A stretch of DNA of 64,000 nucleotides from Candidatus Effluviviaceae Genus V sp. (GTDB taxonomy: Bacteria; Joyebacterota; Joyebacteria; Joyebacterales; Joyebacteraceae), in assembly GCA_014728125.1 (NCBI GenBank), contig WJMD01000097.1, positions 2,833 to 66,832 of the forward strand. The letters run 5' to 3'. Below the pieces are notes generated by a model. That model saw only the letters and a program-made list of their open reading frames with translations. It was not told where the DNA came from and did no database searches. The translations under genes were made by a program, and so were the position numbers. This document shows, piece by piece, positions 3,735 to 33,676 of this stretch. The first letter of the stretch is position 1. Each line of letters begins with the position of its first letter.

Positions 3735-3763
3735 TTGACGTTTGGGCATCGTGGTGGTATAAT
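3735..3763 (+). promoter_or_regulatory. consensus sigma70 promoter (TTGACG-17nt-TATAAT) upstream of the second TlpA-like gene
   Basis: TTGACG sits at 3735-3740, the spacer is 17 nt, and TATAAT sits at 3758-3763. The start codon ATG 3786 lies 23 nt downstream. Confidence 0.5.
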
Positions 3764-3785: not shown

Positions 3786-4352
3786 ATGAAGAGCAGGAGA
3801 CGCGCCGTCCTTGCGACGGTTCTGGCGCTTGGTCTCGTGTTCGCGTGGACGTCTGTATCGTATTCCGACGACCGCGTGGCACCAGACTTCACACTCCCCA
3901 GCATCACCGGGGAGGATCTACAGCTTTCGGAGCTTCTTGAGGAAGGCCCGGTCATCGTGGACTTCTGGGCCACGTGGTGCAAGCCGTGCATCAAGGCCTT
4001 CCCGGAGCTTCAGTCGATCCTTGACAACTACACACACTGCGGTCTGAGGGTCGTCGCAGTCTCGATCGACGGTCCTCGTTCGAGCTCGAAGGTCCCTTCG
4101 TTCATAAAGTCGAAGGGGTTCACCTTCGACGTGGTGCTCGATCCCGGACAGAAGGTGGCGCGGAAGTACCACGTGACCTCTGTACCGCGGACGGTCCTGG
4201 TCGGACAGAACGGCCGGGAGATCTTCGCCTACACGGGCTACCGGCCGTCGCACCACAGGAAGATGGAGGAGGCGCTCGAGGAGCTTTTCCCGGAGGGCTG
4301 CGAGGAGCCGGAGGATGAAACGGCCGAGACGGCGGAGGATGCCGGTGAGTAG
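3786..4352 (+). CDS. TlpA-like periplasmic thiol-disulfide oxidoreductase
   Basis: MKSRRRAVLATVLALGLVFAWTSVSYS is a signal peptide. The motif VIVDFWATWCKPCIKAFPEL and a redoxin C-terminal part (VTSVPRTVLVGQNG) follow. An acidic C-terminal tail is present. The ATG at 3786 lies behind the perfect promoter. Confidence 0.85.
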   Translation: MKSRRRAVLATVLALGLVFAWTSVSYSDDRVAPDFTLPSITGEDLQLSELLEEGPVIVDFWATWCKPCIKAFPELQSILDNYTHCGLRVVAVSIDGPRSSSKVPSFIKSKGFTFDVVLDPGQKVARKYHVTSVPRTVLVGQNGREIFAYTGYRPSHHRKMEEALEELFPEGCEEPEDETAETAEDAGE

Positions 4353-5814
4353 ATACGCCACGATTCTCGCCGCGGCGCTCGCGCTGGCTCTGCCGCGGGC
4401 CGTCCCGGCCGACGAGATCTACGCGACGGGCGTCGTCACCTCCGAGTACGGCTATCACACCGAGGCGGAGGCGTCGCTCTTCGATGCCAGGGTCGAGCTC
4501 GACCTCGAGACCGGACCGGTCCGTCTGGGCTTCGTCCATCGCTTCTATGAGCCGAGCGACGAGGCGTATCCCGGCGCGCTCGACGTGCCGGGTTCCGAGT
4601 TCCGCCAGCGCTTCGCCGAGTTCACGAAGGACTCGTTCAGCGTGCGCGCGGGCGACTTCTTCGCCACGTTCGGGAACGGACTGACGCTCCGGAGCTACGA
4701 GGAGGTCGAGCTGGAGCACGACACCTCGCTCGACGGCGCGCTCGTCGAGATGGACCGGGGCAGCTTCTCGTTCCAGGGGCTCGCCGGGACGACCGAGGAG
4801 ACGGTGACGGCCTCGCGCGTTCGCGAGCACGTCGTCAGGGGTCTGAGGCTCAGCACGAACGTGGCCGGGAAGCTCGACATCGCGGCCAGCGCGGTCGGCA
4901 GGTCGTCGGAGCTTCAGGATGACGAGCAGGAACTGCCCGACGAGGTCGCCCATTTCGAGGACCGGACGCTGGGAGTCGAGACATCGGCATGGCTTGGTCC
5001 CGTGTCGTTCGCGGCCGAGTACGTCGGCCGCTCGGGCGAGAACCCATACGCGGAGACCGGTGACGTCGAGGGACACGGGACGTATCTCGCGACCACCGTC
5101 AACCTGCCGTGGGCGACGCTCTTCGGCGAGTACAAGGACTACTCCGAGCTCGGCCACTATCTGATCAACCCGCCGACCTGCGTGCGGGAGCACCTCTGGA
5201 CGCTGATGAACCGCGTGACCTACGAGATCGACCTCGAGGACGAACGCGGGTTTCTCGGCGAGATCAGCGCTCCGGTCGGGGACGCGCTCTACGTGACGGG
5301 CGGGGCCTCCGAGGCGCGCAGCCAGGACGGCGACCTGAGTCACTGGGAGATCTTCGGGCACGTCGACCACGCGTTCTCCGGCAGCATCTACGGCTCGTTC
5401 GCTGGCTCGTGGTCAAGGGAGTACCTGGGAAACGAGTATAACGACTTCACGGAGCACATGTCGGGCGCGGCCGAGCTGGTGCTCGTGCCGGCGTCGGGGC
5501 AGCCCGTGGAGCTGGTCGTCGAAGGACAACTGACCGAGGAGTTCTACGGGAGCGAGCACACTGATTACCTGTTCTCCTTCACGACCTATCCCGGTGACGG
5601 GATGACGTTCAGCGTCCTGGCCGAGACGACCGACGACGAGACGAGCGAGCGTACCGTGTGGACCTCCTTCGAGGTGCGGCGGCAGATCGTCAGGGACATC
5701 GAGGCGTCCTTCATGATGGGAACCGAGAGGGGCGGAAAGAAGTGCACCGGCGGGATCTGCTACAACGAGCCGGAGTTCGAGGGCGTTCGGGTCAGACTGA
5801 CCGGGTTCTTCTAG
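4345..5814 (+). CDS. putative outer-membrane beta-barrel protein (family unassigned)
   Basis: With the GTG start at 4345, GGAGG lies 6 nt upstream, giving MSRYATILAAALALALPRAVPA as a signal peptide. Alternative in-frame ATGs exist at 4315 and 4339. Alternating hydrophobic patterns run throughout and the protein ends in the aromatic residues LTGFF, typical of OMPs. The gene overlaps the TlpA-like stop. Confidence 0.5.
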   Translation: MSRYATILAAALALALPRAVPADEIYATGVVTSEYGYHTEAEASLFDARVELDLETGPVRLGFVHRFYEPSDEAYPGALDVPGSEFRQRFAEFTKDSFSVRAGDFFATFGNGLTLRSYEEVELEHDTSLDGALVEMDRGSFSFQGLAGTTEETVTASRVREHVVRGLRLSTNVAGKLDIAASAVGRSSELQDDEQELPDEVAHFEDRTLGVETSAWLGPVSFAAEYVGRSGENPYAETGDVEGHGTYLATTVNLPWATLFGEYKDYSELGHYLINPPTCVREHLWTLMNRVTYEIDLEDERGFLGEISAPVGDALYVTGGASEARSQDGDLSHWEIFGHVDHAFSGSIYGSFAGSWSREYLGNEYNDFTEHMSGAAELVLVPASGQPVELVVEGQLTEEFYGSEHTDYLFSFTTYPGDGMTFSVLAETTDDETSERTVWTSFEVRRQIVRDIEASFMMGTERGGKKCTGGICYNEPEFEGVRVRLTGFF

Positions 5815-5822: not shown

Positions 5823-7181
5823 GTGCCGAACACGCTCCGGACAACTCTCAGACGGGCCCTCGCGGTCGCGGCGCTCGCGGCCGTCGGCACAGCACTCGGC
5901 GGCGGCTGCGACTGGTTCGACGATCCGATCGAGCCGAACCTCACGCCCGAGACGTCAATGACGACCTGTCCGTCCCAGGTCGACGCCGGGACCTCGGTCA
6001 CGCTGTCGTGGACTGGGACCGACGTCGACGGCAGCGTGGTCGCCTACGCGTGGGCGTTCGACGACACGATCGACGGATACACGACGGAGACGACTGCCGT
6101 CTTCGACTCCGTGGATGCGGGGGCCCACACGTTCGAGGTCGCGGCGGTCGACGACGACGGCGACACCGACCCGTCGCCCGCGGTCTGCTCGTTCGTCGCG
6201 ATCGACGAGGAGGAGAACCTCCCGCCCGAGACCGAGATGATCACGTGTCCAGGAACGGTGTCGGTCGGAGACGACGTGACGCTCCGTTGGTCCGGCAGCG
6301 ATCTGGACGGAACGGTCGTCTCGTACCGTTGGACGCTGGACGGATCGGACGAGACGACGACGACCGACACGACGCTCGTCGTATCGGACGTCACGGAGGG
6401 CGGACATACCTTCAGCGTCGCGGCCGTCGATGACGACGGCGACGCCGACGGTACGCCCGCGACCTGCTCGTTCACCGCCACGGCGGCCGGGGAGCCGGTT
6501 CCGCGGATCGTGCTGGTCGAGCTCTTCACGACGCACTCGTGCGCGAACTGCCCGAACGCCGAGGAAGGGCTCCACATGATGCTCAGCGAGTACGGATCCG
6601 ACAGCCTCTGCGTCGTGGCCTACCACGACCTGGGGCCTCCGATCGGGCCGGACGTGCTGGCCACGCAGGAGATGATGGACAGGATCGACTGGTACACCGA
6701 CATCCACGGGTTCGAGGACCTGCATCCGCTGGCCCTCTTCGACGGGGACTTCTCGCGGCCGGTCCCGGGCGCGTTGAGTCCGGAGGCTGCCGCCGAGGAC
6801 TACCGTACGGAGATCGAGGTCAGCCGGAAGGTCCCGTCCGCTCTGTCGGTCGACCTGAGCGGGTCGCTGGACGGAGCGCGGGCGAGCGTGACGGTCCGGG
6901 TGCGCGCGCACGACGACCCCGGCGCCGGCGACCTGGTGCTCCGGACCGTGGTCGTCGAGGACGAGGTGCAATCGCAGGGGCGGGTGTTCGACTTCGTCGC
7001 CCGTGACCTTCTCCCGGACGAGCCTCTGACGATGACCGCAGTGGGTGATTCGGCCGTGGTGACCAGGTCGTTCGACGTGGGCCCCGGCTGGAACATGGAC
7101 CATATCGATGTGATCGCGTTCGTCCAGGACGACACGACGCAGGAGGTCATACAGGCCGGGCGACTCGCGACCGGCATGTAG
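5823..7181 (+). CDS. lipoprotein with two tandem Ig-like repeats and a C-terminal thioredoxin-like CxxC domain
   Basis: GTG 5823 follows AGGAGGGG. The lipobox is ALGGGC. Two 93-aa repeats are present (TCPxxV..VTLxWxGxDxDGxVVxYxW...HTFxVAAVDDDGD). The C-terminal domain carries IVLVELFTTHSCANCP and a region paralogous to the N-terminal domain of the next gene (FDFVARDLLP...DHIDVIAFVQDDTTQEVIQAG). Confidence 0.6.
   Translation: MPNTLRTTLRRALAVAALAAVGTALGGGCDWFDDPIEPNLTPETSMTTCPSQVDAGTSVTLSWTGTDVDGSVVAYAWAFDDTIDGYTTETTAVFDSVDAGAHTFEVAAVDDDGDTDPSPAVCSFVAIDEEENLPPETEMITCPGTVSVGDDVTLRWSGSDLDGTVVSYRWTLDGSDETTTTDTTLVVSDVTEGGHTFSVAAVDDDGDADGTPATCSFTATAAGEPVPRIVLVELFTTHSCANCPNAEEGLHMMLSEYGSDSLCVVAYHDLGPPIGPDVLATQEMMDRIDWYTDIHGFEDLHPLALFDGDFSRPVPGALSPEAAAEDYRTEIEVSRKVPSALSVDLSGSLDGARASVTVRVRAHDDPGAGDLVLRTVVVEDEVQSQGRVFDFVARDLLPDEPLTMTAVGDSAVVTRSFDVGPGWNMDHIDVIAFVQDDTTQEVIQAGRLATGM
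5946..6503 (+). repeat. tandem in-frame repeat (2 x 279 bp) encoding Ig-like modules
   Basis: PETSMTTCPSQV at 5946 and PETEMITCPGTV at 6225 begin two units that are similar at the protein and nucleotide level. The period is 279 bp. Confidence 0.6.
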
Positions 7182-7297
7182 ATACGACGACGACCGAAGA
7201 GAGTCAGCAAAGGGAAGAAGGAACACTGTCTCCACAGAGCGCACGGCGACAGGGGCCTCAGACAGTAGGAGTGAAATCGCCGCGAAAGGAGAGCAGC

Positions 7298-9316
7298 ATG
7301 ATGAAGCGAACGGCGATCGTGGCAGTGCTCTGCGCCGTACTGGTGGGAGTCTCAGTGAACGGGGTCGCGGCAGACCGCGTCGTCCTCGCCGAGATGTTCG
7401 GCGGGACGTGGTGCGGATACTGCCCCGACTCGTCAGGCGCCCTTCAGATCCTCAGGGGCGAGTTCAGGGACGACCAGTTCCTGGCCATTTACAATCACGT
7501 GGGCGGCGCCGACCCGTGGCGCACGTCCGAGTCCGAGAGCCGCGCCAGCTGGTACAGCGTCGGCGGCGTCCCGCACGTCGAGTTCGACGGGGTCACCGAC
7601 GTTGTCGGCTCGTACGGGTCGCCCGAGGCGACGGCCGACGCCTTCCGGCCGATCGTCAACAGCCGTCTGGGCGTCTCGGCTCCGCTGACGATCGAGGCCG
7701 TCGGCATCATCGGGTCGTCGGCCGGCTGGGTCGACGCCACCATCAAGGCGACCGAGTCGATCTCCCACACCGATCTCAGGGCGCAGTTCGTCCTCATCGA
7801 GAACGGGATGAGCTACGGCGGGAAGGACTACGACTTCACGGCCCGTGATTACCTGCCGGTCGAGAGTCTCTCGCTCTCCTCGCCCGGCGACTCCGTGGTG
7901 GTCAACAGGAACTTCACCATCGATCCGACCTGGGACCACACGAACATGGAGCTCGTCGTCTTCGTCGAGCGGACGACGGTCAAGCAGATCGTCAACGCCG
8001 GACTCATGACGAACCCCTATCAGTTCGACTTCGAGACGGAGGTCTACGCGGCCGAGGTGCCGCTGATGGGCGGCAGCGTCTTCACGACCGTTCTCAGGAA
8101 CACAGGAACGGTGACCGACACCATCACGGTCAACATCGAGAACGTCGAGATCCCCGACGGCGTCTCCTCGTTCGATTGGTTCGCGACCTACTGCGACGAG
8201 GAAGGTCTGTGCTACTTCGGCGAGCATGACTTCGTTCTGGCGCCTGGAGAGTTCGAGACGCTCGACGTGCACATGGACGACTACAATGGATCGGTCCCCG
8301 GCATGGCGGTCACTCGCCTCTTCGGCACCAGCGCCGGCGACACGACGGCGCTCGAGGAGGAGTACTACGCGACCTTCGTCGGCATGCCTTCCATCCTGGT
8401 CGTCGAGGACGACGGCGACGACACATACGGGACGTACATGAAGTCCGCTCTCGACAGCGTCGGATACGCCGGACACCTGTGGGACGCCCACACACTTGGG
8501 CGCCCGGGTGCGGACCGGCTGGCGTCGTACTGGGCCGTCCTGTGGACGACCGGCAACGGCGACGCCACCGACATCACGGCAGACGACGAGTCGGATCTCA
8601 TGAGCTTCCTCGACGACGGCGGCAACCTGTTCCTCGCCAGCATGAACTACCTGTCGTCGCGCGCCGCAACGAACACCTTCATCACCGACTACCTGAATGT
8701 CAGCTCGTGGACGGACGATGCCGGCGGCTTCGTGATGACGGGCGTGAGCGGCGACATCATCTCCGACGGCATGTCGCTCGGGCTTCTGGGCGGGGACTTC
8801 GCCCCGGGCGCGACCGACAAGTTCGTCATCTCCTCGCCGGCGGATTCGATCTTCTACGCCTCCAACGGCGTGCGCGGACTCAAGGTCGATGACGGCTACA
8901 AGGCCGTCTTCACCTCGTTCCCCTTCGAACTCGTGAAGACGACGACGGCCGACCCCGACAACCAGATGACGCTCATCGACCGCATCCTCACCTGGTTCCA
9001 GATGACGGGTGTCGACGATGTGATCCCGGGCGTGCAGAGGCTGTCGCTCGGCCAGAACTACCCGAACCCCTTCAACCCGGTGACGACCATCGAGTTCTCG
9101 GTGCCCGCGAGCGCGGAGCGCGTTGAGCTCGAGGTCTACAATGTGGCCGGAAGACTGGTCCGGACGCTCGTCGACGGCGAGCTCGAGGCCGGACCGCACA
9201 GGGTCATCTGGGACGGCACGGACGGGAACGGGAAGAGCTGCTCCTCCGGCATCTACTTCACCAGACTGACGGCCGGACGGGAGACGAAGACCGGGAAGAT
9301 GACGCTTCTCAAGTAG
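7298..9316 (+). CDS. T9SS cargo protein: N-terminal thioredoxin-like CxxC domain + uncharacterised middle domain + C-terminal T9SS sorting domain
   Basis: AAGGAG precedes ATG 7298, and MMKRTAIVAVLCAVLVGVSVNGVAA is a signal peptide. The N-terminal domain carries VVLAEMFGGTWCGYCP. The C-terminal 85 aa are GQNYPNPFNPVTTIEFSVP...VYNVAGRLVRTLVDG...GIYFTRL...KMTLLK, which is Por_Secre_tail/FlgD-Ig-like. Confidence 0.7.
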   Translation: MMKRTAIVAVLCAVLVGVSVNGVAADRVVLAEMFGGTWCGYCPDSSGALQILRGEFRDDQFLAIYNHVGGADPWRTSESESRASWYSVGGVPHVEFDGVTDVVGSYGSPEATADAFRPIVNSRLGVSAPLTIEAVGIIGSSAGWVDATIKATESISHTDLRAQFVLIENGMSYGGKDYDFTARDYLPVESLSLSSPGDSVVVNRNFTIDPTWDHTNMELVVFVERTTVKQIVNAGLMTNPYQFDFETEVYAAEVPLMGGSVFTTVLRNTGTVTDTITVNIENVEIPDGVSSFDWFATYCDEEGLCYFGEHDFVLAPGEFETLDVHMDDYNGSVPGMAVTRLFGTSAGDTTALEEEYYATFVGMPSILVVEDDGDDTYGTYMKSALDSVGYAGHLWDAHTLGRPGADRLASYWAVLWTTGNGDATDITADDESDLMSFLDDGGNLFLASMNYLSSRAATNTFITDYLNVSSWTDDAGGFVMTGVSGDIISDGMSLGLLGGDFAPGATDKFVISSPADSIFYASNGVRGLKVDDGYKAVFTSFPFELVKTTTADPDNQMTLIDRILTWFQMTGVDDVIPGVQRLSLGQNYPNPFNPVTTIEFSVPASAERVELEVYNVAGRLVRTLVDGELEAGPHRVIWDGTDGNGKSCSSGIYFTRLTAGRETKTGKMTLLK

Positions 9317-9409: not shown

Positions 9410-11734
9410 ATGCGACACGATTCGCGACTCCTGAGCCTTGTGCTCGCAGCGATCCTCGCCGTCACGCTTCAGGCCGCCGCCTATCCGAGGGACGATGCGG
9501 CTGTCGTCGAGATCGACGTCCATTCAAGGGCGGAGATCCACCATCTCAACGAGCTCGGCATGGACATCATGAACGTGCGGGACGGCGTTGCCGAGATCGC
9601 CGCCGTGCCCTCGGAGATCGACGTGCTGCGAGCCAACGGCTACATCCCGCGCATCGTCATGGAGCGCATGATCGACGGCGTGGCCTCGCTGCGTCTCGAG
9701 GACCGTGGGGAGTACCACAGCTACACCGAGCTGACGAACGACATGGCGGCGTGGGCTTCGGCCTATCCGAACATCACCGAGCTCGTCTCCATCGGTCAGA
9801 GCGTCCTCGGCCGCGAGCTCTGGGCGATGAAGATCACCGACAACCCGGCCATCGAGGAGTTCGAGCCGGAGATCCAGTGGATCGGGGCGCACCACGGCGA
9901 CGAGACGATCAGTGTCGAAGTGTGCTACTACATGATCGACCACCTTCTCGAGAACTACGGTACAGACCCCCAGGTCACGTGGCTCGTCGACGAACGCGAG
10001 ATCTGGATCATCCCGATGTTCAACCCCGACGGCCACACGAGCGGCTCCCGATACAACGGGAACGGCGAGGACCTCAACAGGGGCTACCTCTGTCCGTGCG
10101 GCTGCAACGCCGGCTCGGCCATGGCCCAGCCCGAGCACCAGGCGCTCGAGGCGTTCAACGAGCGGATGAACCCCGTGACGTCGCTCACGTTCCACTCGGG
10201 CGCGGTCTACGTCAACTACCTGTGGGACTACACGTATTCGGCCACGCCCGATGAGGCGATGCTCATCACGCTCTCCGAGGGCTACAGCTCGTACACGGGC
10301 CTCCCTGTGACGAACGGCGCCGACTGGTACATCGTCCACGGGAGCTGTCAGGACTGGTGCTACGACCAGCGCGGTGAGATCGACACGACCATCGAGGTCT
10401 CGACGACCAAGGACCCGCCCCAGTCTTCGATCGATCCGATCGTGTCGGACAACATCCCGGCGATGCTCTATCAGGCGCGGAAGTCGGGGAAGGGCATCCG
10501 GGGGCTTGTGACAGACGGCGAGACCGGCGAGCCGCTGTATGCGACGATCTCGATCCCCGAGATCGGAAAGGACGTCTACACGGACCCGGACGTCGGCGAC
10601 TACCACCGCATGGTCGAGTCGGGTACCTACACGGTTGTCTGTGAGGTCGAGGGATACCCCACCGAGACGGTCTACAACGTCTCGGCGAACCTCGACACGT
10701 TCGTCGTCGTCAACTTCGCCATGGAGCCTCCGCCCCGCGGCACGGTCGCGGGCTACGTCACCGACGAGCTCATGAACCCGATCGAGGCGACCGTCGAGGT
10801 CACCGACCTGACGGGCTACTCGGCCTCGTCGGACCCGGCGACCGGGTACTACGAGATCCCCTACATCCCGGCAGGCACGCACACGGTCCGGGCGAGCGCT
10901 CCGGGCTTCAGGACCGAGGAGCGGACCGGCGTCGAGGTTGTCGACAACACGACCTCGACGGAGAGCTTCGCGCTCGTCGCGCCGGTCTTCTACGACGACT
11001 TCGAGAGCGGGCTTTCGGGCTGGAACGGCTCGTGGGCGACGACCACCTCCGAGGCCATGAGTCCGACCCACTCGATGACCGACAGCCCGGGCGGCCAGTA
11101 CGGCAACAACGACTACACCGTGACCACACTGGCCAGCCCGGTCGATCTGACCGGTCATGCCGAGGCGGCGCTCGTCTTCTGGCACCGGTACGACACCGAG
11201 GCCGGATACGACATCTGCTACGTGGAGGTGAGTTCGGACGGCGGTTCGAGCTGGACGCAGGTCGGTTCGTACGACGGCCTGCAGAACGACTGGGTCGAGG
11301 AAGAGATCGACGTCTCTTCCTGGGCGGGGACGAGTCAGTTCCTCGTCAGGTTCACGCTGGACTCGGACGGCTGGATCACGGACGACGGATGGTACGTCGA
11401 CGACGTCCAGGTCTTCGGCGACCAGACGCTCTCGGGCATCGATGAGGAGATCGTCCGGGCCCCGCGCGTGGCCAACTACCCGAACCCGTTCAACCCGGTG
11501 ACCTCCGTGACCTACTCGGTACCGTCGCCCGGAAGCGTGACACTCGGGATCTACGACGTCTCGGGGCGGCTCGTCCGGACGCTGGTCGACGGAGCCGTCG
11601 AGGTCGCGGGCGAGCACAGCGCGACGTGGAACGGGACGGACGAGGGCGGCCGCTCGGTCGCCGGCGGCGTCTACTTCGCCCGTCTCGTGACCGACGCGGG
11701 GGAGGCCTCCTCGAAGCTCGTGCTGCTCAAGTAG
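9410..11734 (+). CDS. T9SS-secreted M14-family zinc carboxypeptidase with carboxypeptidase-regulatory-like domains
   Basis: A signal peptide is present. The M14 core is HSYTELT...ELWAMKITDNP...WIGAHHGDETIS (HxxE zinc ligands)...NRGY...FHSGA. Two CarboxypepD_reg-like beta-sandwich segments follow (GIRGLVTDGETGEPL; GTVAGYVTDELMNPIEATV). The C-terminal domain YPNPFNPVTSVTYSVP...VYFARL...KLVLLK is a T9SS sorting domain. Confidence 0.85.
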   Translation: MRHDSRLLSLVLAAILAVTLQAAAYPRDDAAVVEIDVHSRAEIHHLNELGMDIMNVRDGVAEIAAVPSEIDVLRANGYIPRIVMERMIDGVASLRLEDRGEYHSYTELTNDMAAWASAYPNITELVSIGQSVLGRELWAMKITDNPAIEEFEPEIQWIGAHHGDETISVEVCYYMIDHLLENYGTDPQVTWLVDEREIWIIPMFNPDGHTSGSRYNGNGEDLNRGYLCPCGCNAGSAMAQPEHQALEAFNERMNPVTSLTFHSGAVYVNYLWDYTYSATPDEAMLITLSEGYSSYTGLPVTNGADWYIVHGSCQDWCYDQRGEIDTTIEVSTTKDPPQSSIDPIVSDNIPAMLYQARKSGKGIRGLVTDGETGEPLYATISIPEIGKDVYTDPDVGDYHRMVESGTYTVVCEVEGYPTETVYNVSANLDTFVVVNFAMEPPPRGTVAGYVTDELMNPIEATVEVTDLTGYSASSDPATGYYEIPYIPAGTHTVRASAPGFRTEERTGVEVVDNTTSTESFALVAPVFYDDFESGLSGWNGSWATTTSEAMSPTHSMTDSPGGQYGNNDYTVTTLASPVDLTGHAEAALVFWHRYDTEAGYDICYVEVSSDGGSSWTQVGSYDGLQNDWVEEEIDVSSWAGTSQFLVRFTLDSDGWITDDGWYVDDVQVFGDQTLSGIDEEIVRAPRVANYPNPFNPVTSVTYSVPSPGSVTLGIYDVSGRLVRTLVDGAVEVAGEHSATWNGTDEGGRSVAGGVYFARLVTDAGEASSKLVLLK

Positions 11735-11807: not shown

Positions 11808-11837
11808 TTGACACGCGGCGAGGGGCGGTGACATTAT
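11808..11837 (+). promoter_or_regulatory. putative sigma70 promoter for the transporter gene
   Basis: TTGACA sits at 11808-11813, an 18-nt spacer follows, and CATTAT sits at 11832-11837. The -10 element is weak. Confidence 0.3.
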
Positions 11838-17183: not shown

Positions 17184-18014
17184 GTGACGATCGCAGTGCT
17201 GGCCAGCGGCAGTTCGGGGAACGCCATGGTCGTCTCTTCCGACGGCGTGAACCTCGTCATCGACGCCGGCGTCTCCGCGCGCCGTCTGGCGGGCGGTCTT
17301 CGGGAGCTGTCGATCGGGGAGGACGAGGTTTCGGCGGTGCTCGTCACGCACGAGCATCACGATCACGTCTGTGGGTTGGGCCCCGTGTCGAGACGTCTCG
17401 CTTCTCCGGTCGTCGCGACGCGCGGCACCCACGGCGCCGTGCGCTCGAGGCTCGGAGACGGCGGTATCGGCGTCACGATCTCCCCAGGCGACACCCTGAC
17501 GCTGGGCGGTCTCGAGGTCACCGCCTTCGCGACCAGCCACGACTGCGCGGAGCCCGTTGGGTATGCGATCACCGACGGCGAGGCGAGCGTCGCCGTCGCG
17601 ACCGACCTCGGCGTCGTCGACGGGGACGTACGGCGCCACCTGGCGAACGCCGACTGCGTCGTGCTCGAGTCGAACCACGACGAGAAGATGCTCGTCGACG
17701 GACGCTACCCCTGGCACCTCAAACGGCGCATCATGGGAAGGCTGGGGCATCTCTCGAACGCGGCCGCGGCCGCCGAGGTGACTGGGCTCACCGGCTCACC
17801 CCTCTCGCTTCTCGTTCTTGCGCACCTGTCGAAGGAGAACAACGACCCCGGGCTCGCTGTCGATATCGCGGCTGAGGCGCTCGACGGCGCGGGCCTCTCT
17901 GATGTGGAGCTTCACGTCGCCTCCCAGGAGCTGCTTCTCGGACCGCTCGACATCCCGGCCCGGCGTAGCGCCCGCGGGACCGCACCGGAGATGGAGCCAT
18001 CATGGACAAGATAG
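17184..18014 (+). CDS. MBL-fold metallo-hydrolase
   Basis: The HxHxDH motif LVTHEHHDHVCGL is present, with a downstream His/Asp pattern typical of the metallo-beta-lactamase fold. The start was taken at GTG 17184 (the ORF is open from 17103). The 3' end overlaps the ugd start by 13 nt. Confidence 0.7.
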   Translation: MTIAVLASGSSGNAMVVSSDGVNLVIDAGVSARRLAGGLRELSIGEDEVSAVLVTHEHHDHVCGLGPVSRRLASPVVATRGTHGAVRSRLGDGGIGVTISPGDTLTLGGLEVTAFATSHDCAEPVGYAITDGEASVAVATDLGVVDGDVRRHLANADCVVLESNHDEKMLVDGRYPWHLKRRIMGRLGHLSNAAAAAEVTGLTGSPLSLLVLAHLSKENNDPGLAVDIAAEALDGAGLSDVELHVASQELLLGPLDIPARRSARGTAPEMEPSWTR

Positions 18015-19330
18015 CAGTGGTCGGGACCGGGTACGTCGGGCTCGTCGGCGGCGCGGGACTGGCCGACTTCGGCAACACCGTCATCGGCGTCGACCTGGAC
18101 GAGTCCAAGATCCGGAAGCTGGAGAACGGACAGGTTCCCTTCTACGAGCCCGGACTCGCCGAGGTCGTCACGCGGAACGTCAAGGAGGGACGGCTCTCCT
18201 TCACGACCGACTTCGCGTCCGCCGTTGCGGAGTGCGGCATCATCTTCATAGCGGTCGGAACGCCGGAGGGCGAGGACGGCGCCGTCGATCTCTCCCAGGT
18301 CGACACGGTCGCCCGCGACATCGGCAGGCACATGACCGGCTACCGCGTCATCGTCCAGAAGAGCACCGTTCCGGTCGGCACGGCCGTCCGTCTACGCCGG
18401 ATTGTCGAAGAGAACCAGAGGGAGAAGCACCCGTTCGACGTCGTGTCGAACCCGGAGTTCCTGCGCGAGGGCTCGGCCGTCGAGGACTTCATGCGGCCGA
18501 ACCGTGTGGTCGTCGGCACGGAGAGCGAGAAGGCGCGCGAGATCATGCGGAACATCTACGCGCCGCTCTACCTCATCAAGACGCCGATCGTCGAGACCAC
18601 GTGCGAGACCGCGGAGCTCATCAAGTACGCCTCGAACGCCTTCCTCGCCACGAAGATCTCGTTCATCAACGAGATGGCGAACCTCTGTGAGAGGGTCGGG
18701 GCCGACGTCCAGACGCTGGCCTATGCCATGGGGCTCGACAAGCGCATCGGGCCGAAGTTCCTGCACGCCGGTGCCGGCTACGGCGGGTCGTGTTTTCCCA
18801 AGGACACCAAGGCGCTTGTGAAGATCGCCGAGGCCGCCGGTCGGGAGGCGAGCATCGTCGCCGCGGGGATCATAGTCAACGAAGCCCAGAAGCGGCGCAT
18901 GGTCGACAAGGTCCGTGAGGCGGCCGGCGGGAGCCTCGAGGGAAAGACGGTCGGCCTCCTCGGTCTCGCGTTCAAGCCCAACACGGACGACATGCGGTAC
19001 GCCGCCTCGGTCGTGCTGGCCGAGGGCGTGCGCGACGAGGGCGGGACCGTCCGGGCGTTCGACCCGGTCGCCGCTGAGAACGCCAGGGACCTCATGCCTT
19101 TCATCGAGTACTGCGACGATGCGTACTCGGTCGCGGAGGGCGCGGACGTGCTGGCCCTCGTGACCGAGTGGAACGAGTTCCGGCGGCTGGACATACCGCG
19201 GCTGAAGGATCTCATGGCCGCCCCGGTCGTCGTCGACTGCAGGAACGTCTACCATCCGTCCGATTTCGAGGAGCACGGGTTCACCTACGTCGGCGTCGGC
19301 CGCGGACGGTCGGAAGCCCAGGGTTCGTAG
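18002..19330 (+). CDS. ugd: UDP-glucose 6-dehydrogenase (nucleotide-sugar dehydrogenase family)
   Basis: A Rossmann motif MDKIAVVGTGYVGLV is present. The central domain carries the catalytic Cys region GGSCFPKD, and a C-terminal UDP-binding domain follows. Confidence 0.9.
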   Translation: MDKIAVVGTGYVGLVGGAGLADFGNTVIGVDLDESKIRKLENGQVPFYEPGLAEVVTRNVKEGRLSFTTDFASAVAECGIIFIAVGTPEGEDGAVDLSQVDTVARDIGRHMTGYRVIVQKSTVPVGTAVRLRRIVEENQREKHPFDVVSNPEFLREGSAVEDFMRPNRVVVGTESEKAREIMRNIYAPLYLIKTPIVETTCETAELIKYASNAFLATKISFINEMANLCERVGADVQTLAYAMGLDKRIGPKFLHAGAGYGGSCFPKDTKALVKIAEAAGREASIVAAGIIVNEAQKRRMVDKVREAAGGSLEGKTVGLLGLAFKPNTDDMRYAASVVLAEGVRDEGGTVRAFDPVAAENARDLMPFIEYCDDAYSVAEGADVLALVTEWNEFRRLDIPRLKDLMAAPVVVDCRNVYHPSDFEEHGFTYVGVGRGRSEAQGS

Positions 19331-19340
19331 GGGGGACGAC

Positions 19341-19847
19341 ATGTCGTCAGCAAGCGCGAGGAAGCTCCCGCCCGGCGTCCGGGCGAAGCGGCTCATCGAC
19401 GGTGTCGAGATCAAGGAGCTGCGCCTGATACCCGACGAGCGCGGCTATCTGATGGAGATGATGCGCGCCGACGATCCCTTCTTCACGAAGTTCGGGCAGG
19501 TCTACCTGTCGGTCGCCTATCCCGGCGTGGTCAAGGGCTGGCACTACCACAGGGTGCAGACCGACCACTTCACGATCGTCAAGGGCATGATGAAGGTCGT
19601 GCTCTACGACGACCGCGAGGACTCGCCGACGAAGGGCGAGGTCAACGAGTTCTTCATGGGCGAGCTCAACCCCATCCTCATCACGATTCCGCCCGGCGTT
19701 CTCCACGGCATGAAGGCCATAGGGACCGAGCCCGGCTACCTCGTCAACTGCCCGACCGAGACGTACGACTACGCGGAGCCCGACGAGTTCCGCGTCGACC
19801 CCCACGACAACGACATTCCCTACGATTGGGCACAGAAGGACGGGTAG
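19341..19847 (+). CDS. dTDP-4-dehydrorhamnose 3,5-epimerase-like cupin (RmlC family)
   Basis: DERGYLMEM...VKGWHYH...Q.KVV.V.KG...VV.D.R..SPT.G......L.......L.IP.G..HG matches the RmlC core pattern. Confidence 0.7.
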   Translation: MSSASARKLPPGVRAKRLIDGVEIKELRLIPDERGYLMEMMRADDPFFTKFGQVYLSVAYPGVVKGWHYHRVQTDHFTIVKGMMKVVLYDDREDSPTKGEVNEFFMGELNPILITIPPGVLHGMKAIGTEPGYLVNCPTETYDYAEPDEFRVDPHDNDIPYDWAQKDG

Positions 19848-19853
19848 GACCGG

Positions 19854-20813
19854 CTAGGACGCCGGTTCGCACGCGCCACGCACCGCCCGCAGCCGCGCTC
19901 GGGCGCGGCGGGCGCGCTCCGATGCCGCCTCGGAGGGCCTGATGGCGGCCAGCGCCGTCGTCAGGAGGGCGCGGACGGCGAGCGACGCGCGCAGGAGCGA
20001 CGCGTAGAGCCGGGCGCGGGCGGGCCCAGCGTGCTTCCTGACGAGGTCGGTCTTCGCGCGGAGGAGCCTGCGTTCGTACTCGGGGGAGACGTCGCCGGCC
20101 GTCGAGGACGCGCCACGCGAGTGGGCCACGACGGCGCGCTCATCGAGCACGACGCTCCATCCCCCGCGGCGGGCTCTCAGGCAGAAGTCCGCGTCCTCCG
20201 CGTAGAAGCGGAACGATTCATCGAATCCCCCCAGCTCCCGGAAGCACTCCCGCCTGATCGCCATGCAGGCCCCGTCGACATACTCCACCCGGCGCACCCG
20301 CCTCGGGCCGCCGGATGACCAGCGTGCCCCCGCCCGCCGCTCCGCGAGCGTATCCAGCAGGAACAGAGACCGGAGCGCCGAGAGGGCCGACGGAACGCGG
20401 CCCGACGCCCGCTGCCACCCGCCGTTCGGGTAGACGAGGGCCGGCCCCGCGACACCGACGTCCGGAGTCTCGAGCGTCTTGAGCAGCGGAGCGAGCGAGC
20501 CGTCGGATGTCCACTCGAGGTCGTTGTTCATGACGATGAGCACGCCGGTCGTCGCGCGGGAAACGCCGGCGTTGACCGCCGACGAGTAGGAGGGAGAGCG
20601 ACCCGTCTCGAGCACGAGGTCGACATCTCCCATCGAGGAGGCGTGCGCTGCGAGCGCGGCCGCTGAGAGCTCTCGAGTGTTGTCGACCACGATGAGCTCG
20701 CGCAGGAGCCGGGCGTCCGGGTGCGCGGCGAGCGTCTCGAGCAGTCTCGTGAGGATCTCACGCCGGCCGTAGTGAACGACCACCGCCGACGCCAATCCTC
20801 TCTCAGTCGTCAC
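19854..20813 (-). CDS. glycosyltransferase family 2
   Basis: A GT-A fold is indicated by SAVVVHYGRRE...LIVVDN...SSAVNAG...VMNNDLE...GACMAIRRECFRELGGFDE...FYAEDADFC. Confidence 0.8.
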   Translation of the reverse strand: MTTERGLASAVVVHYGRREILTRLLETLAAHPDARLLRELIVVDNTRELSAAALAAHASSMGDVDLVLETGRSPSYSSAVNAGVSRATTGVLIVMNNDLEWTSDGSLAPLLKTLETPDVGVAGPALVYPNGGWQRASGRVPSALSALRSLFLLDTLAERRAGARWSSGGPRRVRRVEYVDGACMAIRRECFRELGGFDESFRFYAEDADFCLRARRGGWSVVLDERAVVAHSRGASSTAGDVSPEYERRLLRAKTDLVRKHAGPARARLYASLLRASLAVRALLTTALAAIRPSEAASERARRARARLRAVRGACEPAS

Positions 20814-20942
20814 GCCGGACTCCTTCAGCCTTCAGTCAGGTGGCAATGGCGTCTTCATTCCGATAGAATCCACGGAGGCGCGGCCGCCGTGTCTCCGGCA
20901 TGATACACGACGACAGCCGCCTTCCCAAGCGGAGGAGAGCGG

Positions 20943-22463
20943 GTGCAGGAGAACCACGAGAACACGCTCAAGGTCGTCAAGGAGTCGGGCATCGGACTCA
21001 CGGGCCTGCTTTTCGGCACGGTCCTGAACTACGTCCTGCTGATGGTTCTGACGCGCTGGCTCGATACCGACGCCTTCGGCACGTTCGTCCTCGCCCAGTC
21101 GGTCGTGTGGCTCGCGGCCATCCTCGTGCTCTTCGGCAGTCCCCGCGCGCTCGATCGCTACATTCCGCTCTACAGGGCTAGAAACGAACCGGGGAGGGTC
21201 CGGACACTCGTCAGGTTCATTGCGATCATATCGATCGCGGTCGCCGTGCTGGCCGCGCTCGTGCTCTGGCTCCTGTCGCCCTGGCTCGCGGGCTCGGTCT
21301 TCCGGAACCCGCTTCTCGACGCGACCCTGGCGCTCATGGCATTGACGCTGCCGCTCATCGTCGTCGTGCGCCTCGTCTCGTTCGCCTTCGCCGGTCTCAA
21401 GGAGATGCGCTACGAGGTCTATCTGCAGCACCTGGCGACGCCGCTCTCGAAGATCGCGCTCGGCCTCGTCGTTCTCGCGCTCGGCCTCGGCTACATGGGC
21501 TGGCTGTGGGCCTACGTCGCCGCGCTGGCCTTCGTGGCGCTCCTGGCCGTATGGTTCGTCACGCGGCGGCTCCTGCCCGCCATCGGCTCCGGTCCTCGCG
21601 AACGGATAGACATTCGTGAGATCGTCGCCTACTCGTGGCCGCTCGGTCTGACCGGCGTCGTCGTCATGCTCCAGGGCCAGATCGATGTCCTCTTCCTGGG
21701 GCGCTACGGCCCACCGGCCGACGTGGGCATCTACCGCATCTACATCCAGATGTGCGCCCCGCTGCTGCTCGTCATGATGGCGTTCGCCCGCATCTACAAG
21801 CCGGTGCTCTGTGAGCTGATCGCCGGGGGCGGCACCCGCGACGCGCTCTCGCTCTACCGTCGCGTAGCTCGTTGGATCATGCTCGTCAACGCGCTCGGCT
21901 TCCTGCTGCTCGTTCTCTACGGTCGCGAGATCGTCGCCCTCGTCTTCCCCGTCGCCTACGCTGGTGCGCCGGCTGTCCTCGGGGTCCTGGTCGCCGGGCG
22001 CCTGGCCAACACGTCGTTCGGACCAGAGGGTATGACGCTGGAGGCCTTCGGCAACACGAAGCTCTCGCTCATGAACGCGGTTCTCATGCTGGCGGTGAAC
22101 GTCGGCGTCGACCTGGTTCTTGTTCCACGGATGGGTCTCCTGGGGGCCGCGATCGGGGCGACCTCCGCTACCACGATCGGGGGCCTCGCCGGGGTCATCG
22201 AGATACGCGTGCTTCACGGGTTTCAGCCCTACACCCGGCGGCACCTCGGGATCGCGGCGGCGATGGTGGCGGTCGTGGCTGCGGGACTGGGTGCCAGAAC
22301 GCTGCTGCCCGGGACCGGAGGGTTCTGGCTGGCCGCGCACCTCGCGATCGCCGTCGCCGTGTATGCGCTCGTCGTCCGCGTGACGGGTGTGCTCGATGAC
22401 ACCGACCGCGCGGTCGCGAGACGACTCGTGGACCGCGCGCGCGGGAACGGGAGACGAAGATGA
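20943..22463 (+). CDS. polysaccharide/O-antigen flippase (Wzx, MOP superfamily)
   Basis: The protein has about 14 TM helices and a polysaccharide-biosynthesis-protein-like N-terminus (KESGIGLTGLLFGTVLNYVLLMVLTRWLDTDAFGTF). Confidence 0.7.
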   Translation: MQENHENTLKVVKESGIGLTGLLFGTVLNYVLLMVLTRWLDTDAFGTFVLAQSVVWLAAILVLFGSPRALDRYIPLYRARNEPGRVRTLVRFIAIISIAVAVLAALVLWLLSPWLAGSVFRNPLLDATLALMALTLPLIVVVRLVSFAFAGLKEMRYEVYLQHLATPLSKIALGLVVLALGLGYMGWLWAYVAALAFVALLAVWFVTRRLLPAIGSGPRERIDIREIVAYSWPLGLTGVVVMLQGQIDVLFLGRYGPPADVGIYRIYIQMCAPLLLVMMAFARIYKPVLCELIAGGGTRDALSLYRRVARWIMLVNALGFLLLVLYGREIVALVFPVAYAGAPAVLGVLVAGRLANTSFGPEGMTLEAFGNTKLSLMNAVLMLAVNVGVDLVLVPRMGLLGAAIGATSATTIGGLAGVIEIRVLHGFQPYTRRHLGIAAAMVAVVAAGLGARTLLPGTGGFWLAAHLAIAVAVYALVVRVTGVLDDTDRAVARRLVDRARGNGRRR

Positions 22464-23941
22464 AACGTGTCCTCGTCATAGGACTGGACGGGGCCTGCTT
22501 CGATGTGATCGACCGTCTCGCGGACGGCGGCGCGGTGCCGACGCTCGAGAGGCTGATGCGTGACGGGGTGCGCGGGCCCCTCGAGAGCACCGTTCCGCCC
22601 ACGACGATCCCCGCATGGTTCAGCATGGCGACCGGGCTTCCGCCCGGGGAACTCGGCGTCAGCGATTTCCTGTACTTCGATCCACGTCAGGGGAGGATGC
22701 GCGGCGTCGGTTCGAGCATTCTCTGTGGACGGGCCGTCTGGGACGTGCTCGGCCGGGTCGGTTTGCGCGTCGGCCTTCTCAACTTCCCGCTTCTCTGGCC
22801 ACCGTGCCCCGTGAACGGGTTCGCCACGACGGGCGTCGGGGCCACCGCGGACGATGAGTACGCCTGGCCGCGCGAGCTGAAGCAGGAGATCGAGCGCGTG
22901 GCCGGAGGACGCTATCACCCCGTCGTGCCCTATCACAAACCCAGGTACGACGACCTCGACCTCTTCTTCGACGATCTCGAGACCGCCTTCGAGGGCCACG
23001 ACCGGGTCGCGACCCACTTCGCCCGGAAGGACGACTGGTCGCTCCTGTGGGTCGTCTTCTCCGCGACCGACTGGCTGCAGCACAGAACGTGGTCCGCGAT
23101 CGCCGGCGGATCGGACGGCGCCGAATCCGACACCCTCCGCCGGCACGACGCCTTCTGGACCCGGGTCGACCGCGCGATCGCCGGGCTCATCGAGGCGGCC
23201 GGCGATGGAACGACCGTGCTCGTCGTCTCCGACCACGGGTTCGGCTCGAACGACCTGGTGTTCAGGCTGAACGCGTGGCTCGAGCAGTGGGGATATCTCA
23301 CGAGGCGGGGGGAAGGGCGCGGCTCGACGGTGGCCGAGCGGTCGGCCAGGGCTGTCCGCGCCGTGGCGCGGGCCGTCGGCGTGCACCGGCTGGCGCCCGC
23401 GCTCTACGATCGAGGTCGGCGGGCCGCACGCCCCGCGTGGACGTCGGCGTCGCATCGCATCGACCTCGAGGAAAGCACGGCGTTCGATCCTGGGCATACC
23501 GTGCCGTTCGGCGGGATCTACGTGCGGGGGGCCGCGGACGAACCCGAACGTGCCGAGCGGATCGCGCGGGAGCTGTCGGAGTGGGGACGTGAGAACGGGG
23601 TCGAGATCGACTCCCGCGTACGACGTGGACAGCCCGTCTCAAACGGCAGACGCATGCCCGACATCATCGTCTCGGTCGAGGGGTGGTCCGGGGTGATTCT
23701 CAAAGAAGAGCTCGACGGTCCTCTGATCGAGCGCAGGCCCCTCTCGACGCGGCATACCGGCTCCCACCGGCCCGAGGGGATCCTCGTGGCGCACGGTCCG
23801 GGAGTCGCGAATGGCGTGCGCACCCGGGCCCGCATCACGCAGATCGCGCCGACGATTCTCCGATCCCTGGGGCTCGACGTGCCGCAGGAGATGACGGACG
23901 GAGTCATGTCGGAGTGCCTTCCGGACGACGACCGACCCTGA
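22460..23941 (+). CDS. alkaline-phosphatase-superfamily phosphodiesterase/nucleotide pyrophosphatase-like protein
   Basis: The N-terminal metal-site motif VLVIGLDGACFDVIDRL is present, with a later SDHGF. This matches the type I phosphodiesterase/NPP family pattern. Confidence 0.6.
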   Translation: MKRVLVIGLDGACFDVIDRLADGGAVPTLERLMRDGVRGPLESTVPPTTIPAWFSMATGLPPGELGVSDFLYFDPRQGRMRGVGSSILCGRAVWDVLGRVGLRVGLLNFPLLWPPCPVNGFATTGVGATADDEYAWPRELKQEIERVAGGRYHPVVPYHKPRYDDLDLFFDDLETAFEGHDRVATHFARKDDWSLLWVVFSATDWLQHRTWSAIAGGSDGAESDTLRRHDAFWTRVDRAIAGLIEAAGDGTTVLVVSDHGFGSNDLVFRLNAWLEQWGYLTRRGEGRGSTVAERSARAVRAVARAVGVHRLAPALYDRGRRAARPAWTSASHRIDLEESTAFDPGHTVPFGGIYVRGAADEPERAERIARELSEWGRENGVEIDSRVRRGQPVSNGRRMPDIIVSVEGWSGVILKEELDGPLIERRPLSTRHTGSHRPEGILVAHGPGVANGVRTRARITQIAPTILRSLGLDVPQEMTDGVMSECLPDDDRP

Positions 23942-23960
23942 CCGGTCGCCGGTCATCCCT

Positions 23961-25325
23961 TTACGCGTAACCCAGGTCCTTCAGTTTCTCGAGCGTTCTG
24001 CGGTCCTGCTCCACATCATCCTGTTCATCGCCGCCGCGGCTGGACCGTAAGAGTTCGATGTGCTCCCGAACATCTTCCGGCACATCAGGGCCCGGGCGCT
24101 CGTTGTGGCGCTCGAGCGGGTCTCGTGAAAGGTCATACCGCTCACTACCCGTGCGCTCGTCGTAGATGAACTTCTCCGTCGCGGTCCTCCGGGAGATCAC
24201 CCACTTCTCCTCCCATTCGAACTCGCTCCATGCCGCAGCGTCGGCGGCATCGACGTCACCCTCCGCTGAACTCAGGAGCGAGCGGCCCCGCATGCCCTCC
24301 GGCGGGAGGCCGGCCACCTCGAGCAGCGTCGGACCGATGTCGAGGTGCGACACGAGCCCGTCCTTCACCTCGGGCCGCCCGGAACCCGGCAGCTTGATCA
24401 GAAGCGGCACGTGGATGATCTCGTCGTAGAGCTTCGGTGTCGCGCCCATGTGTCCGTGACCGATCTCACCGTGCTCCCGGAACTCTTCGCCGTGGTCGGC
24501 CGTCACGACGATCGTCAGCCTGTCCAGCAGTCCCAGCTCCTCCAGGCCGTCGAGGAGGCGGCCGAGCTGGTCGTCGGCGGTGCGGATGTGCGCGTCGTAG
24601 AGGTCGATGAGCAGTTCGACGTCCTCCTTCGAGAGGCTCGCCTGCCGCGTCTCGACGTCGGCCATGACGCGCGCGAGTCTGCGCACGGACACCCGCCGTC
24701 GGAGGAAACACTCCCTGTGCTTCGGTATCGGAACGTAGGGTGAATGGGGCTCCGCGATGTGGAGCCACGCGAAGAAGGGAGCGTCGCCGTTCTCCCTGAT
24801 CCAGCTCAGGGCGCGATCCACGACCGAGCCGGCGGTCGGGTACGGCGGGATCCCGCTTCGAAGCTGCCTCGCGCGTTGCCACCTGAGAGCCGCGCGCGAG
24901 AGGGCGGGGAGCCCCCTGACGGCGGCGGCCGCTCTCCGCAGACGGGAGGGCGACGGTCCGTCCCCGGCAAGATCCGACTCGCCGACGAAGTCGTCGAAGC
25001 CGCGGTCCCAGCCGGCGCCGGGTGAGAGGAGCGGGTTGGAGACGACGGCGAGGGTCCGCGCTCCGGCGCTCCTGAACGTGTCCGGGACCGAACGCCGGAG
25101 ACCCGACAGCGAATCCGGGTCCGGCCGCTCGAGCGGGTAAGTCGAACTCAGGAGACCCTTCATGCACGATATCGTGGACGGCCCCGCGGCGAAGGCGCAC
25201 GAGTAGACGGTCGATCGCTCCGCCAGACGGCCGAGCGAAGGGGCCGTGTCGCGGTCGTACCGATGCCACGGTGTATGGTCGGCGCGCAGGCTGTCGAGCA
25301 CGACCAAGAGCACGCTGTCGTTCAA
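23961..25325 (-). CDS. sulfatase-family (AlkP-superfamily) hydrolase/transferase, soluble
   Basis: SVLLVVLDSLRADH is present at the N-terminus and TADHGE...GHGH later, which is a sulfatase-fold pattern. The canonical CxPxR formylglycine motif is not evident (SCAFAAGPST). There is no N-terminal membrane domain. Confidence 0.7.
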   Translation of the reverse strand: MNDSVLLVVLDSLRADHTPWHRYDRDTAPSLGRLAERSTVYSCAFAAGPSTISCMKGLLSSTYPLERPDPDSLSGLRRSVPDTFRSAGARTLAVVSNPLLSPGAGWDRGFDDFVGESDLAGDGPSPSRLRRAAAAVRGLPALSRAALRWQRARQLRSGIPPYPTAGSVVDRALSWIRENGDAPFFAWLHIAEPHSPYVPIPKHRECFLRRRVSVRRLARVMADVETRQASLSKEDVELLIDLYDAHIRTADDQLGRLLDGLEELGLLDRLTIVVTADHGEEFREHGEIGHGHMGATPKLYDEIIHVPLLIKLPGSGRPEVKDGLVSHLDIGPTLLEVAGLPPEGMRGRSLLSSAEGDVDAADAAAWSEFEWEEKWVISRRTATEKFIYDERTGSERYDLSRDPLERHNERPGPDVPEDVREHIELLRSSRGGDEQDDVEQDRRTLEKLKDLGYA

Positions 25326-25477
25326 CGCTTCACCCCCCGATGCTCCCTGCCCGCGTCCGGGCGACGCACGGCGGACCAGGTCATTGTAGCGGCTGGTCCG
25401 GCGATGACAACCCTCCAGTGGTGCTGCACTTGGGGCGTCCCTCGGCGCCGGAAAGCCTTTGACCGCGGCGGGTCACC

Positions 25478-28353: not shown

Positions 28354-28456
28354 TGTGTCCGGCGCCGCCGGTTCTTCCCTTATCCCAGACTGACGAAGCC
28401 GGCCACTTGTTGTCTCCGAGGACGGGGCCGCGACCGTATCGAGAGCGGGAGTCCCC

Positions 28457-33567: not shown

Positions 33568-33676
33568 ACTGAGGCCGCCGTACACGGGAGGGCGTACAGA
33601 ACGAGCTTGACAGCTACGAATGAGTCCTGAATAATCCCGATTCCGACGTTTGGCAGGGATCTGTCAGGAAACTGTC

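Follow-up and report, generated by a model that had tools for sequence, protein, structure and literature searches.

Comparison with described systems

Proteins of the Omp28, HBP35 and DUF1223 kinds occur widely, with more than 4500 cluster representatives, and no physiological role has been agreed for them. The present analysis concerns two adjacent genes of this kind in a stretch of 64,000 nucleotides (hereafter the window; G+C content 67%) of contig WJMD01000097.1 from Candidatus Effluviviaceae Genus V sp. The first (positions 5823-7181, + strand) encodes a lipoprotein-type paralogue, and the second (7271-9316, + strand; 681 aa from GTG 7271, with a signal peptide) a paralogue of type IX secretion system (T9SS) cargo type; they are called the lipoprotein copy and the T9SS copy below. 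Both genes encode one exported two-part module, a thioredoxin fold with a CxxC motif followed by a beta-sandwich, as in HBP35, Omp28 and DUF1223. The nearest public relatives are metagenome-assembled genomes labelled Candidatus Eisenbacteria or "uncultured bacterium", with full-length orthologues 50-80% identical (for the T9SS copy, in L002-L007; L numbers denote related loci from public genomes and metagenomes, P numbers database proteins).

Among characterised proteins, the T9SS copy is most closely related to HBP35 of Porphyromonas gingivalis (PGN_0659/PG0616, 35 kDa hemin-binding protein, PDB 5Y1A), a T9SS cargo whose reduction of insulin needs C48/C51, which complements an E. coli dsbA mutant, and which binds hemin through its later part (PMC2907840). 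Both proteins have a signal peptide, a WCGYCP motif with Cys 48 and 51 and a T9SS C-terminal sorting domain (CTD), HBP35 being displayed on the cell surface, and the two-part module of thioredoxin fold and beta-sandwich is common to HBP35 and both window modules. However, the identity to the T9SS copy is only 17% (profile E 7e-4), HBP35 has no Ig-like plus amidotransferase-like passenger between module and CTD, and no TlpA-DUF6029 operon has been described for it. The lipoprotein copy differs from HBP35 in its SCANCP motif and in having no CTD. Neither copy, nor their orthologues, contains HH or HxH clusters or an invariant His in the sandwich of the HBP35 hemin-binding type, a weak test because the HBP35 residues are themselves proposed rather than proven.

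The Omp28 family (PF11551; NF033782; PDB 2R2C domain) resembles the lipoprotein copy, whose own lipid anchor is predicted, in combining a lipoprotein anchor with the same module; the NF033782 alignment spans the CxxC region, and relatives positive for Pfam Omp28 keep the CxxC. Unlike Omp28, the lipoprotein copy has PKD repeats between anchor and module and an invariant CDWF starting at the presumed lipid-anchored Cys. The "Omp28-related selenoprotein" model NF045500 belongs to the same superfamily, and some of its members carry selenocysteine (Sec) for the active-site Cys, as some T9SS-copy orthologues (UGYCP) probably do, whereas both window copies have Cys. DUF1223 proteins (PF06764; Atu2684, PDB 2AXO) are about 250 aa long, stand alone and come mostly from Proteobacteria and Acidobacteria. 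A further likeness is to the TlpA/ResA/CcmG reductive pathways, in which a membrane-tethered periplasmic thioredoxin-fold reductase is encoded beside a presumed thioredoxin-fold client or partner. TlpA/ResA proteins are known to serve cytochrome c maturation, ScoI and CoxB; at this locus, a DUF6029 barrel and Omp28-like modules are the conserved partners, and CcdA/DsbD is not nearby.

The kind of domain and its use in lipoproteins and T9SS cargo are already known, and the double deployment is not unusual for the family, having been seen in Omp28 and HBP35 of P. gingivalis. In the literature searched, there appears to be no description of the particular fusions, of the conserved TlpA-DUF6029-Omp28-like association or of the Sec-bearing T9SS orthologues outside the curated family. 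The locus ties the module to a TlpA-type reductase and an uncharacterised DUF6029 barrel through conserved gene order, and so yields a concrete hypothesis, open to test, on thiol redox chemistry of the envelope and cell surface in bacteria of the FCB group.

Homology, fold and family of the two modules

An earlier sequence-only reading of this DNA had claimed that the domain at the C-terminus of the lipoprotein is homologous to the one at the N-terminus of the next gene product, citing the strings FDFVARDLLP and YDFTARDYLP, which are present in the translations of 5823-7181 (+) and 7271-9316 (+), respectively. Pairwise BLASTP of lipoprotein residues 228-448 against T9SS-copy residues 36-246 gives one strong local alignment with 65 of 221 positions identical (29%, E=7e-29). 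This value is far beyond chance and the match is not of low complexity, so that the two domains are true paralogues. The module spans residues 226-448 of the lipoprotein copy (6498-7166) and residues 35-247 of the T9SS copy (7373-8011), and a tblastn search with either domain found only these two copies, and no third, in the window.

The orthologues of the two copies in Candidatus Eisenbacteria-like genomes fall into two distinct groups. The median identity within groups is 51% for the lipoprotein type and 44% for the T9SS type, against a median of 31% and a maximum of 38% between groups, which indicates that the duplication predates the divergence of these lineages.

The AlphaFold model of T9SS-copy residues 33-250, built from 31 aligned sequences, is confident (predicted local distance difference test, pLDDT, 95.9; predicted TM-score, pTM, 0.92). 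It shows a beta-alpha-beta-alpha-beta-beta-alpha thioredoxin fold (residues ~35-133) followed by a beta-sandwich (~139-246). In model numbering, C16 and C19 of the CxxC motif lie at the start of helix 1 (19-32), and P69, which corresponds to P101 of the protein, stands just before strand 70-73; by this position in the model, P101 is the cis-Pro candidate. A profile of the two copies matched the solved structures of HBP35 (5y1a, E=7e-4, with both module ends matched) and DUF1223 (2axo, E=2e-3).

The scores against curated family models are low. PF11551 (Omp28) gives 25.3 and 22.4 bits for the lipoprotein and T9SS copies against a gathering threshold of 34.9, NF033782 (Omp28 family outer membrane lipoprotein) 51 and 21.8 bits against 150, and NF045500 53.8 and 67 bits against 200, while PF06764 (DUF1223) gives 22.1 bits for the lipoprotein copy against 30.7. 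The corresponding E values for the lipoprotein module are 2e-14 (NF045500), 1e-13 (NF033782), 1.6e-5 (PF11551) and 1.7e-4 (PF06764). The earlier suggestion that the domain resembles the Omp28-like family was therefore the right lead at superfamily level, but the thresholds of PF11551 and NF033782 are not reached, and among characterised proteins HBP35 stands nearest to the T9SS copy.

A word-indexed homologue search with a single domain returned no matches, whereas an exhaustive profile search collected 4515 cluster representatives at E<=1e-3, with very diverse domain architectures. One of the database proteins, P0153 (402 aa), has a Thr/Pro-rich linker, a C-terminal hydrophobic helix and a basic tail resembling a C-terminal membrane or sortase-type anchor; if it is an anchor, this tail would be a third tethering mode for the same module.

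The cysteine pair and probable selenocysteine in orthologues

The CxxC motif is C241-A-N-C244 (6543-6554) in the lipoprotein copy and C48-G-Y-C51 (7412-7423) in the T9SS copy. The best 150 proteins of the 4515 cluster representatives contain 144 complete homologous domains, and all but one of these (143) retain C..C, so that the pair is conserved. In T9SS-copy numbering, E41, C48, C51, R91 and E177 are invariant in 31 diverse members, and both paralogue groups have C48, C51 and P101 without exception.

About ten database proteins begin with a Met right after the motif and one begins with "VYCP" (P0035, P0040, P0049, P0067 and P0124 are among those starting just after the motif), and the underlying DNA was therefore inspected. 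An in-frame TGA replaces the codon of the first Cys (W-U-G-Y-C-P) in 6 of 17 T9SS-copy orthologues and in four more distant relatives (L007:1066, L007:3183, L017:10866, L019:10748, L025:9980, L025:12102, L008:7342, L030:6418, L037:5549 and L037:9711). At these sites, the upstream signal peptide is intact and the domain continues downstream. Starting 12 nt after the UGA there is a 7-bp hairpin; compensatory changes across lineages affect four of its pairs, in line with what is expected of bacterial selenocysteine insertion sequence (SECIS) elements. On the strength of the in-frame UGA and the conserved hairpin that follows it, the codon is read as probable selenocysteine. All 16 lipoprotein-type orthologues examined have Cys at this position, and both window copies carry Cys (TGC) where some orthologues have TGA.

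Exchange between Sec and Cys at the attacking position is characteristic of a redox residue with a catalytic role, and the probable Sec found in orthologues in place of the first Cys marks this residue as catalytic; the alternation in a T9SS cargo pinpoints it. Together with the modelled thioredoxin fold and the invariant Pro at the cis-Pro position, this substitution strongly suggests the redox-active role that had been proposed from the window alone. A literature search on Omp28 and selenoproteins returned nothing. The Sec-bearing Eisenbacteria-type orthologue of L025 reaches only 27.8 bits against NF045500, which places the Sec forms found here outside the curated family. Gene callers routinely truncate these proteins at the UGA, and the first residue of many database entries lies directly behind the motif. 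A second T9SS-type copy is present in L007 and L025; at L007:3057-4832 and L025:12105-13730 there are two tandem T9SS-type copies (module, middle region and CTD), both with UGA at the first Cys.

Architecture and predicted location of the two proteins

The lipoprotein copy combines an N-terminal signal with Cys29 (CDWFDDP), two PKD/Ig-like repeats with a Cys pair in each (residues 42-116 and 145-208; 5946-6446) and the C-terminal module. Both repeats are recovered above the Pfam cutoffs, PF22352 at 35.4 bits (cutoff 27) and PF00801 at 27.5 bits (cutoff 23.5), with two stretches each, and the architecture of signal and Cys, two Ig-like repeats and a CxxC domain initially described holds. The signal ends in LGGG immediately before CDWF. 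A comparison by motif shows a basic n-region, a hydrophobic h-region, small residues at -1 and -2 and an invariant Cys in 17 of 17 orthologues. The motif C-D-W-F-x-x-P-x-x-x-N (5907-5927 in the window) is likewise invariant in all 17; with an Asp at +2 and a W-F pair this near the predicted lipid anchor, it may be a signal for sorting or a motif for docking. Orthologues differ in how many PKD repeats separate anchor and thioredoxin module: the window and L002 have two, with an anchor-to-module distance of about 197 aa, and other orthologues (L003, L005, L011-L025) have one, with about 104 aa.

By the E. coli rule, Asp at +2 means retention in the inner membrane. In Bacteroidota, acidic residues after the lipid-anchored Cys are a surface-export signal for lipoproteins (PMC5080379). 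Because these two rules point differently, the lipoprotein copy could sit at the inner membrane, at the periplasmic face of the outer membrane, or at the surface beside the T9SS copy, so that the same chemistry at two compartments, as proposed in the earlier reading, is one possibility among several.

For the T9SS copy, the true start is probably ATG 7298 or 7301, since the orthologues begin MxKR(T/S)A, a choice that leaves the homology result unchanged. The protein ends in a T9SS type A sorting domain (FlgD_ig/Por_Secre_tail; residues 597-681, 9059-9316) that is above cutoff for TIGR04183 (28.7 vs 23 bits), PF18962 (29.9 vs 27) and PF13860 (48.7 vs 27), the first two of which confirm the sorting tail assigned to the second gene at the outset. 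If the organism has a T9SS, this copy should be surface-attached or secreted; a literature search for T9SS in Eisenbacteria found no paper.

The region between module and sorting domain, initially described as an unknown middle domain, instead consists of an Ig-like sandwich and a class-I glutamine-amidotransferase-like (ThuA-like) domain, as judged from a confident AlphaFold2 model (pLDDT 92.9) and Foldseek. The Ig-like (PapD/MSP-like) beta-sandwich covers residues ~252-370 (8024-8380), with Foldseek matches to PapD-like/MSP domains, and the alpha/beta domain residues ~375-577 (8393-9001), with matches to ThuA-like 1t0b (TMt 0.56) and 1i7q_B (TMt 0.68). The only Pfam hint, DUF2194 at E 0.015, is not significant. 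The invariant residues of the middle region include D, G, S211, S252 and D253; because there is no invariant Cys or His, a canonical glutamine amidotransferase was rejected.

Many stand-alone proteins consist of a signal peptide, the middle region and a CTD, without the thioredoxin module. At L001:5362-8778, a short redoxin open reading frame (ORF) is followed by a 523-aa protein, a protein of module and CTD (P0151) and another module gene. The 523-aa protein is homologous to T9SS-copy residues 350-681 (alpha/beta domain and CTD) and adjoins the gene of module and CTD. These neighbouring pieces indicate that the window's T9SS copy joins two units which can also be encoded side by side.

Gene cluster and its conservation

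The two copies belong to five tightly spaced + strand genes at 3.7-11.7 kb, encoding a TlpA-like protein, a DUF6029 protein, the lipoprotein copy, the T9SS copy and an M14 peptidase. A promoter-like site (3735-3763, +; TTGACG, 17 nt spacer, TG-TATAAT; 11/12 match with extended -10) lies 22 nt 5' of ATG 3786, the likely start codon of TlpA, in front of which stands AGGGGGG. Another promoter-like site follows only at 11808-11837, no convincing terminator is seen between the first site and 11808, and intergenic gaps are short or genes overlap. Taken together, these features make a single transcription unit likely.

The TlpA/ResA-like protein (3786-4352, +), with a WCKPC motif, is a predicted periplasmic thiol:disulfide reductase (AhpC-TSA 1e-22, Redoxin 3e-18); its match to the ResA-like model NF002854 (3e-26) is under the model cutoff. 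The ORF is open from 3627, and the protein starting at 3786 (MKSRRRAVLATV...) has a signal peptide or signal anchor. The DUF6029 gene (4315-5814, +; PF19494 6e-23, 81.7 bits vs cutoff 27) overlaps the 3' end of the TlpA-like gene and encodes a predicted Wzi-like outer-membrane beta-barrel terminating in ...ERGGKKCTGGICYNEPEFEGVRVRLTGFF. DUF6029 has been likened to the 18-stranded outer-membrane barrel of Wzi and proposed as a Wzi-like porin near outer-membrane polysaccharide export (OPX) genes (PMC9603273). In five sequences, the Cys pair C477/C482 (5743-5760) and the terminal aromatic residue are invariant or conserved. The C-terminal motif ERGGxxCxGGxC(Y/H)xEPxFxGxR is invariant, with the pair (CxGGxC) just before the C-terminal strand, and this pair could be a redox client for the TlpA-like protein encoded next to it or, alternatively, a structural disulfide. 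The last gene (9410-11734, +) encodes an M14 zinc carboxypeptidase that also carries CarboxypepD_reg and MAM-like domains, together with a T9SS CTD (PF00246 2.7e-47, TIGR04183 32.7 bits).

The order dNK, TlpA, DUF6029, lipoprotein copy, T9SS copy, M14 is kept in L002, L003, L005 and many metagenome contigs, and the order from TlpA to M14 persists down to about 50% identity; the M14 gene is kept downstream in L002-L006, L012, L017-L019, L022 and L025. Co-occurrence was further scanned in metagenomes seeded with DUF6029 only, the flanks being searched by six-frame profiles. A TlpA-like gene accompanies DUF6029 in all 23 loci having upstream DNA and lies directly upstream in 22, and, of the 19 loci whose downstream flank measures 1 kb or more, 17 have an Omp28-like module. 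Among these 17 are loci with barrels only 22-33% identical to that of the window (L029, L030, L032, L037). In L029, an Omp28-like lipoprotein gene stands between the TlpA-like gene and DUF6029, and the order in L009 is TlpA, Omp28-like lipoprotein, DUF6029.

Proposed mechanism and alternatives

We judge it fairly probable that both modules act as Cys-dependent thiol-disulfide oxidoreductases, and the locus is plausibly a redox module of the envelope that makes use of an already known domain family. The first Cys (C241 in the lipoprotein copy, C48 in the T9SS copy) would attack a substrate disulfide or another oxidised sulfur or selenium species, and the second would resolve the mixed intermediate. 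Following an old duplication, one copy would have come to be held by an N-terminal lipid anchor behind PKD spacers, while the other, fused to the Ig-like and amidotransferase-like passenger, would be routed through the T9SS to surface display or release. Both copies appear to be co-transcribed with the periplasmic TlpA-like reductase and the DUF6029 outer-membrane barrel, and the TlpA-like protein is probably the reductant that keeps at least the lipoprotein copy reduced. What the data show is the homology and fold of the modules, the conserved Cys pair, the probable Sec replacement in orthologues, the sorting signals and the synteny; the catalytic activity, the direction of electron flow, the partnership with the TlpA-like and DUF6029 proteins and the final location of each copy are what we infer.

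A more elaborate form, in which the five-gene cluster is a dedicated relay carrying reducing power from the periplasm to the cell surface through the DUF6029 barrel, seems improbable. Here, the TlpA-like protein would reduce the lipid-anchored module, which in turn would act on the (seleno)thioredoxin module displayed by the T9SS beyond the outer membrane, working with, or threading through, the barrel by means of its invariant CDWF...P N-terminus. If such a relay were true, DUF6029, Omp28 and HBP35-type proteins would share a common function.

Several observations weigh against the proposal of TlpA-supported thiol-disulfide oxidoreductases. A surface-displayed thioredoxin is without an obvious reductant, and neither a CcdA/DsbD-type membrane electron donor nor the T9SS core genes (PorU/V, SprA, PorK-N) were found across the 64-kb window. 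The direction of the chemistry is not fixed, because HBP35 also complements a dsbA oxidase defect. Both window proteins score under every cutoff of the curated Omp28/DUF1223 models. Position -3 of the lipobox is G, S or A rather than L in the 17 orthologues, which is non-canonical with respect to [LVI][ASTVI][GAS]C. Finally, two of the long-flank DUF6029 loci, L031 and L035, have no Omp28-like gene.

The complementation of E. coli dsbA defects by HBP35 (PMC2907840), together with the conserved Cys pairs in neighbouring gene products, would also fit modules that are oxidases or isomerases (DsbA/DsbC-like) and form or shuffle disulfides in exported proteins, instead of ending a TlpA-driven reductive path; the Cys-pair PKD repeats, the C-terminal CxGGxC of DUF6029 and T9SS cargo would be examples of clients. 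We regard this as rather unlikely, since the modules are tightly and conservedly paired with a TlpA/ResA-type protein, a family that normally donates reductant, and the cluster has no DsbB-like reoxidising partner. The occurrence of Sec at the N-terminal attacking position argues in the same direction, such a placement being more typical of reductase- or peroxidase-type chemistry.

There is little probability that the modules are mainly ligand-binding surface proteins like HBP35, with a sandwich that captures heme or another nutrient and an accessory CxxC. The entire two-part module is indeed common to HBP35, which binds hemin via residues 135-344 independently of its Cys pair and whose mutant grows poorly without hemin (PMC2907840). 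However, the His clusters proposed for hemin binding in HBP35 (H204-206, H252-253, H261) have no counterpart here, the His residues of the window modules being scattered and none invariant in the sandwich; moreover, the top-conserved positions are elements of the thioredoxin active site and not of the sandwich, and the Sec substitution indicates catalysis. That the CxxC has no catalytic role and is a structural disulfide or binds a metal within a scaffold or adhesin domain, its gene neighbourhood being coincidental, is very improbable: both proteins do carry the Ig-like or PKD spacers typical of surface scaffolds, but a Cys-to-Sec swap with a SECIS-like hairpin is unexpected for a structural disulfide, the motif occupies the canonical thioredoxin active-site position, and the TlpA/DUF6029 association recurs in distant lineages.

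Surroundings of the cluster

Rfam and tRNA scans of the 64-kb window were empty, and no Sec machinery was found across it. A long LptD homologue (1087 aa) at 47143-50406 confirms a diderm, lipopolysaccharide-containing envelope. Two neighbouring ORFs (455 and 429 aa) at 51282-53884 have coding-type GC3 but match no Pfam model at E<=1e-5. Positions 18002-34840 hold a large cluster for the biosynthesis and export of polysaccharide, which encodes a UDP-glucose dehydrogenase, a Wzx-like flippase, Wzz/GNVR, a Wzy-like protein and several glycosyltransferases, with an OPX/SLBB export protein at 25478-27124; the DUF6029 gene of the window lies 20 kb from the OPX gene and has its conserved tie with TlpA. 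Upstream of the five genes there is a second thiol-redox set, comprising an ArsR-family regulator (692-1216), a cytoplasmic-type thioredoxin (1217-1594), which begins directly after the stop codon of the regulator, and an exported AhpC/TSA-redoxin (1618-2217). This thioredoxin and redoxin are also syntenic in L002, L003, L005, L012, L014, L017, L019 and L025.

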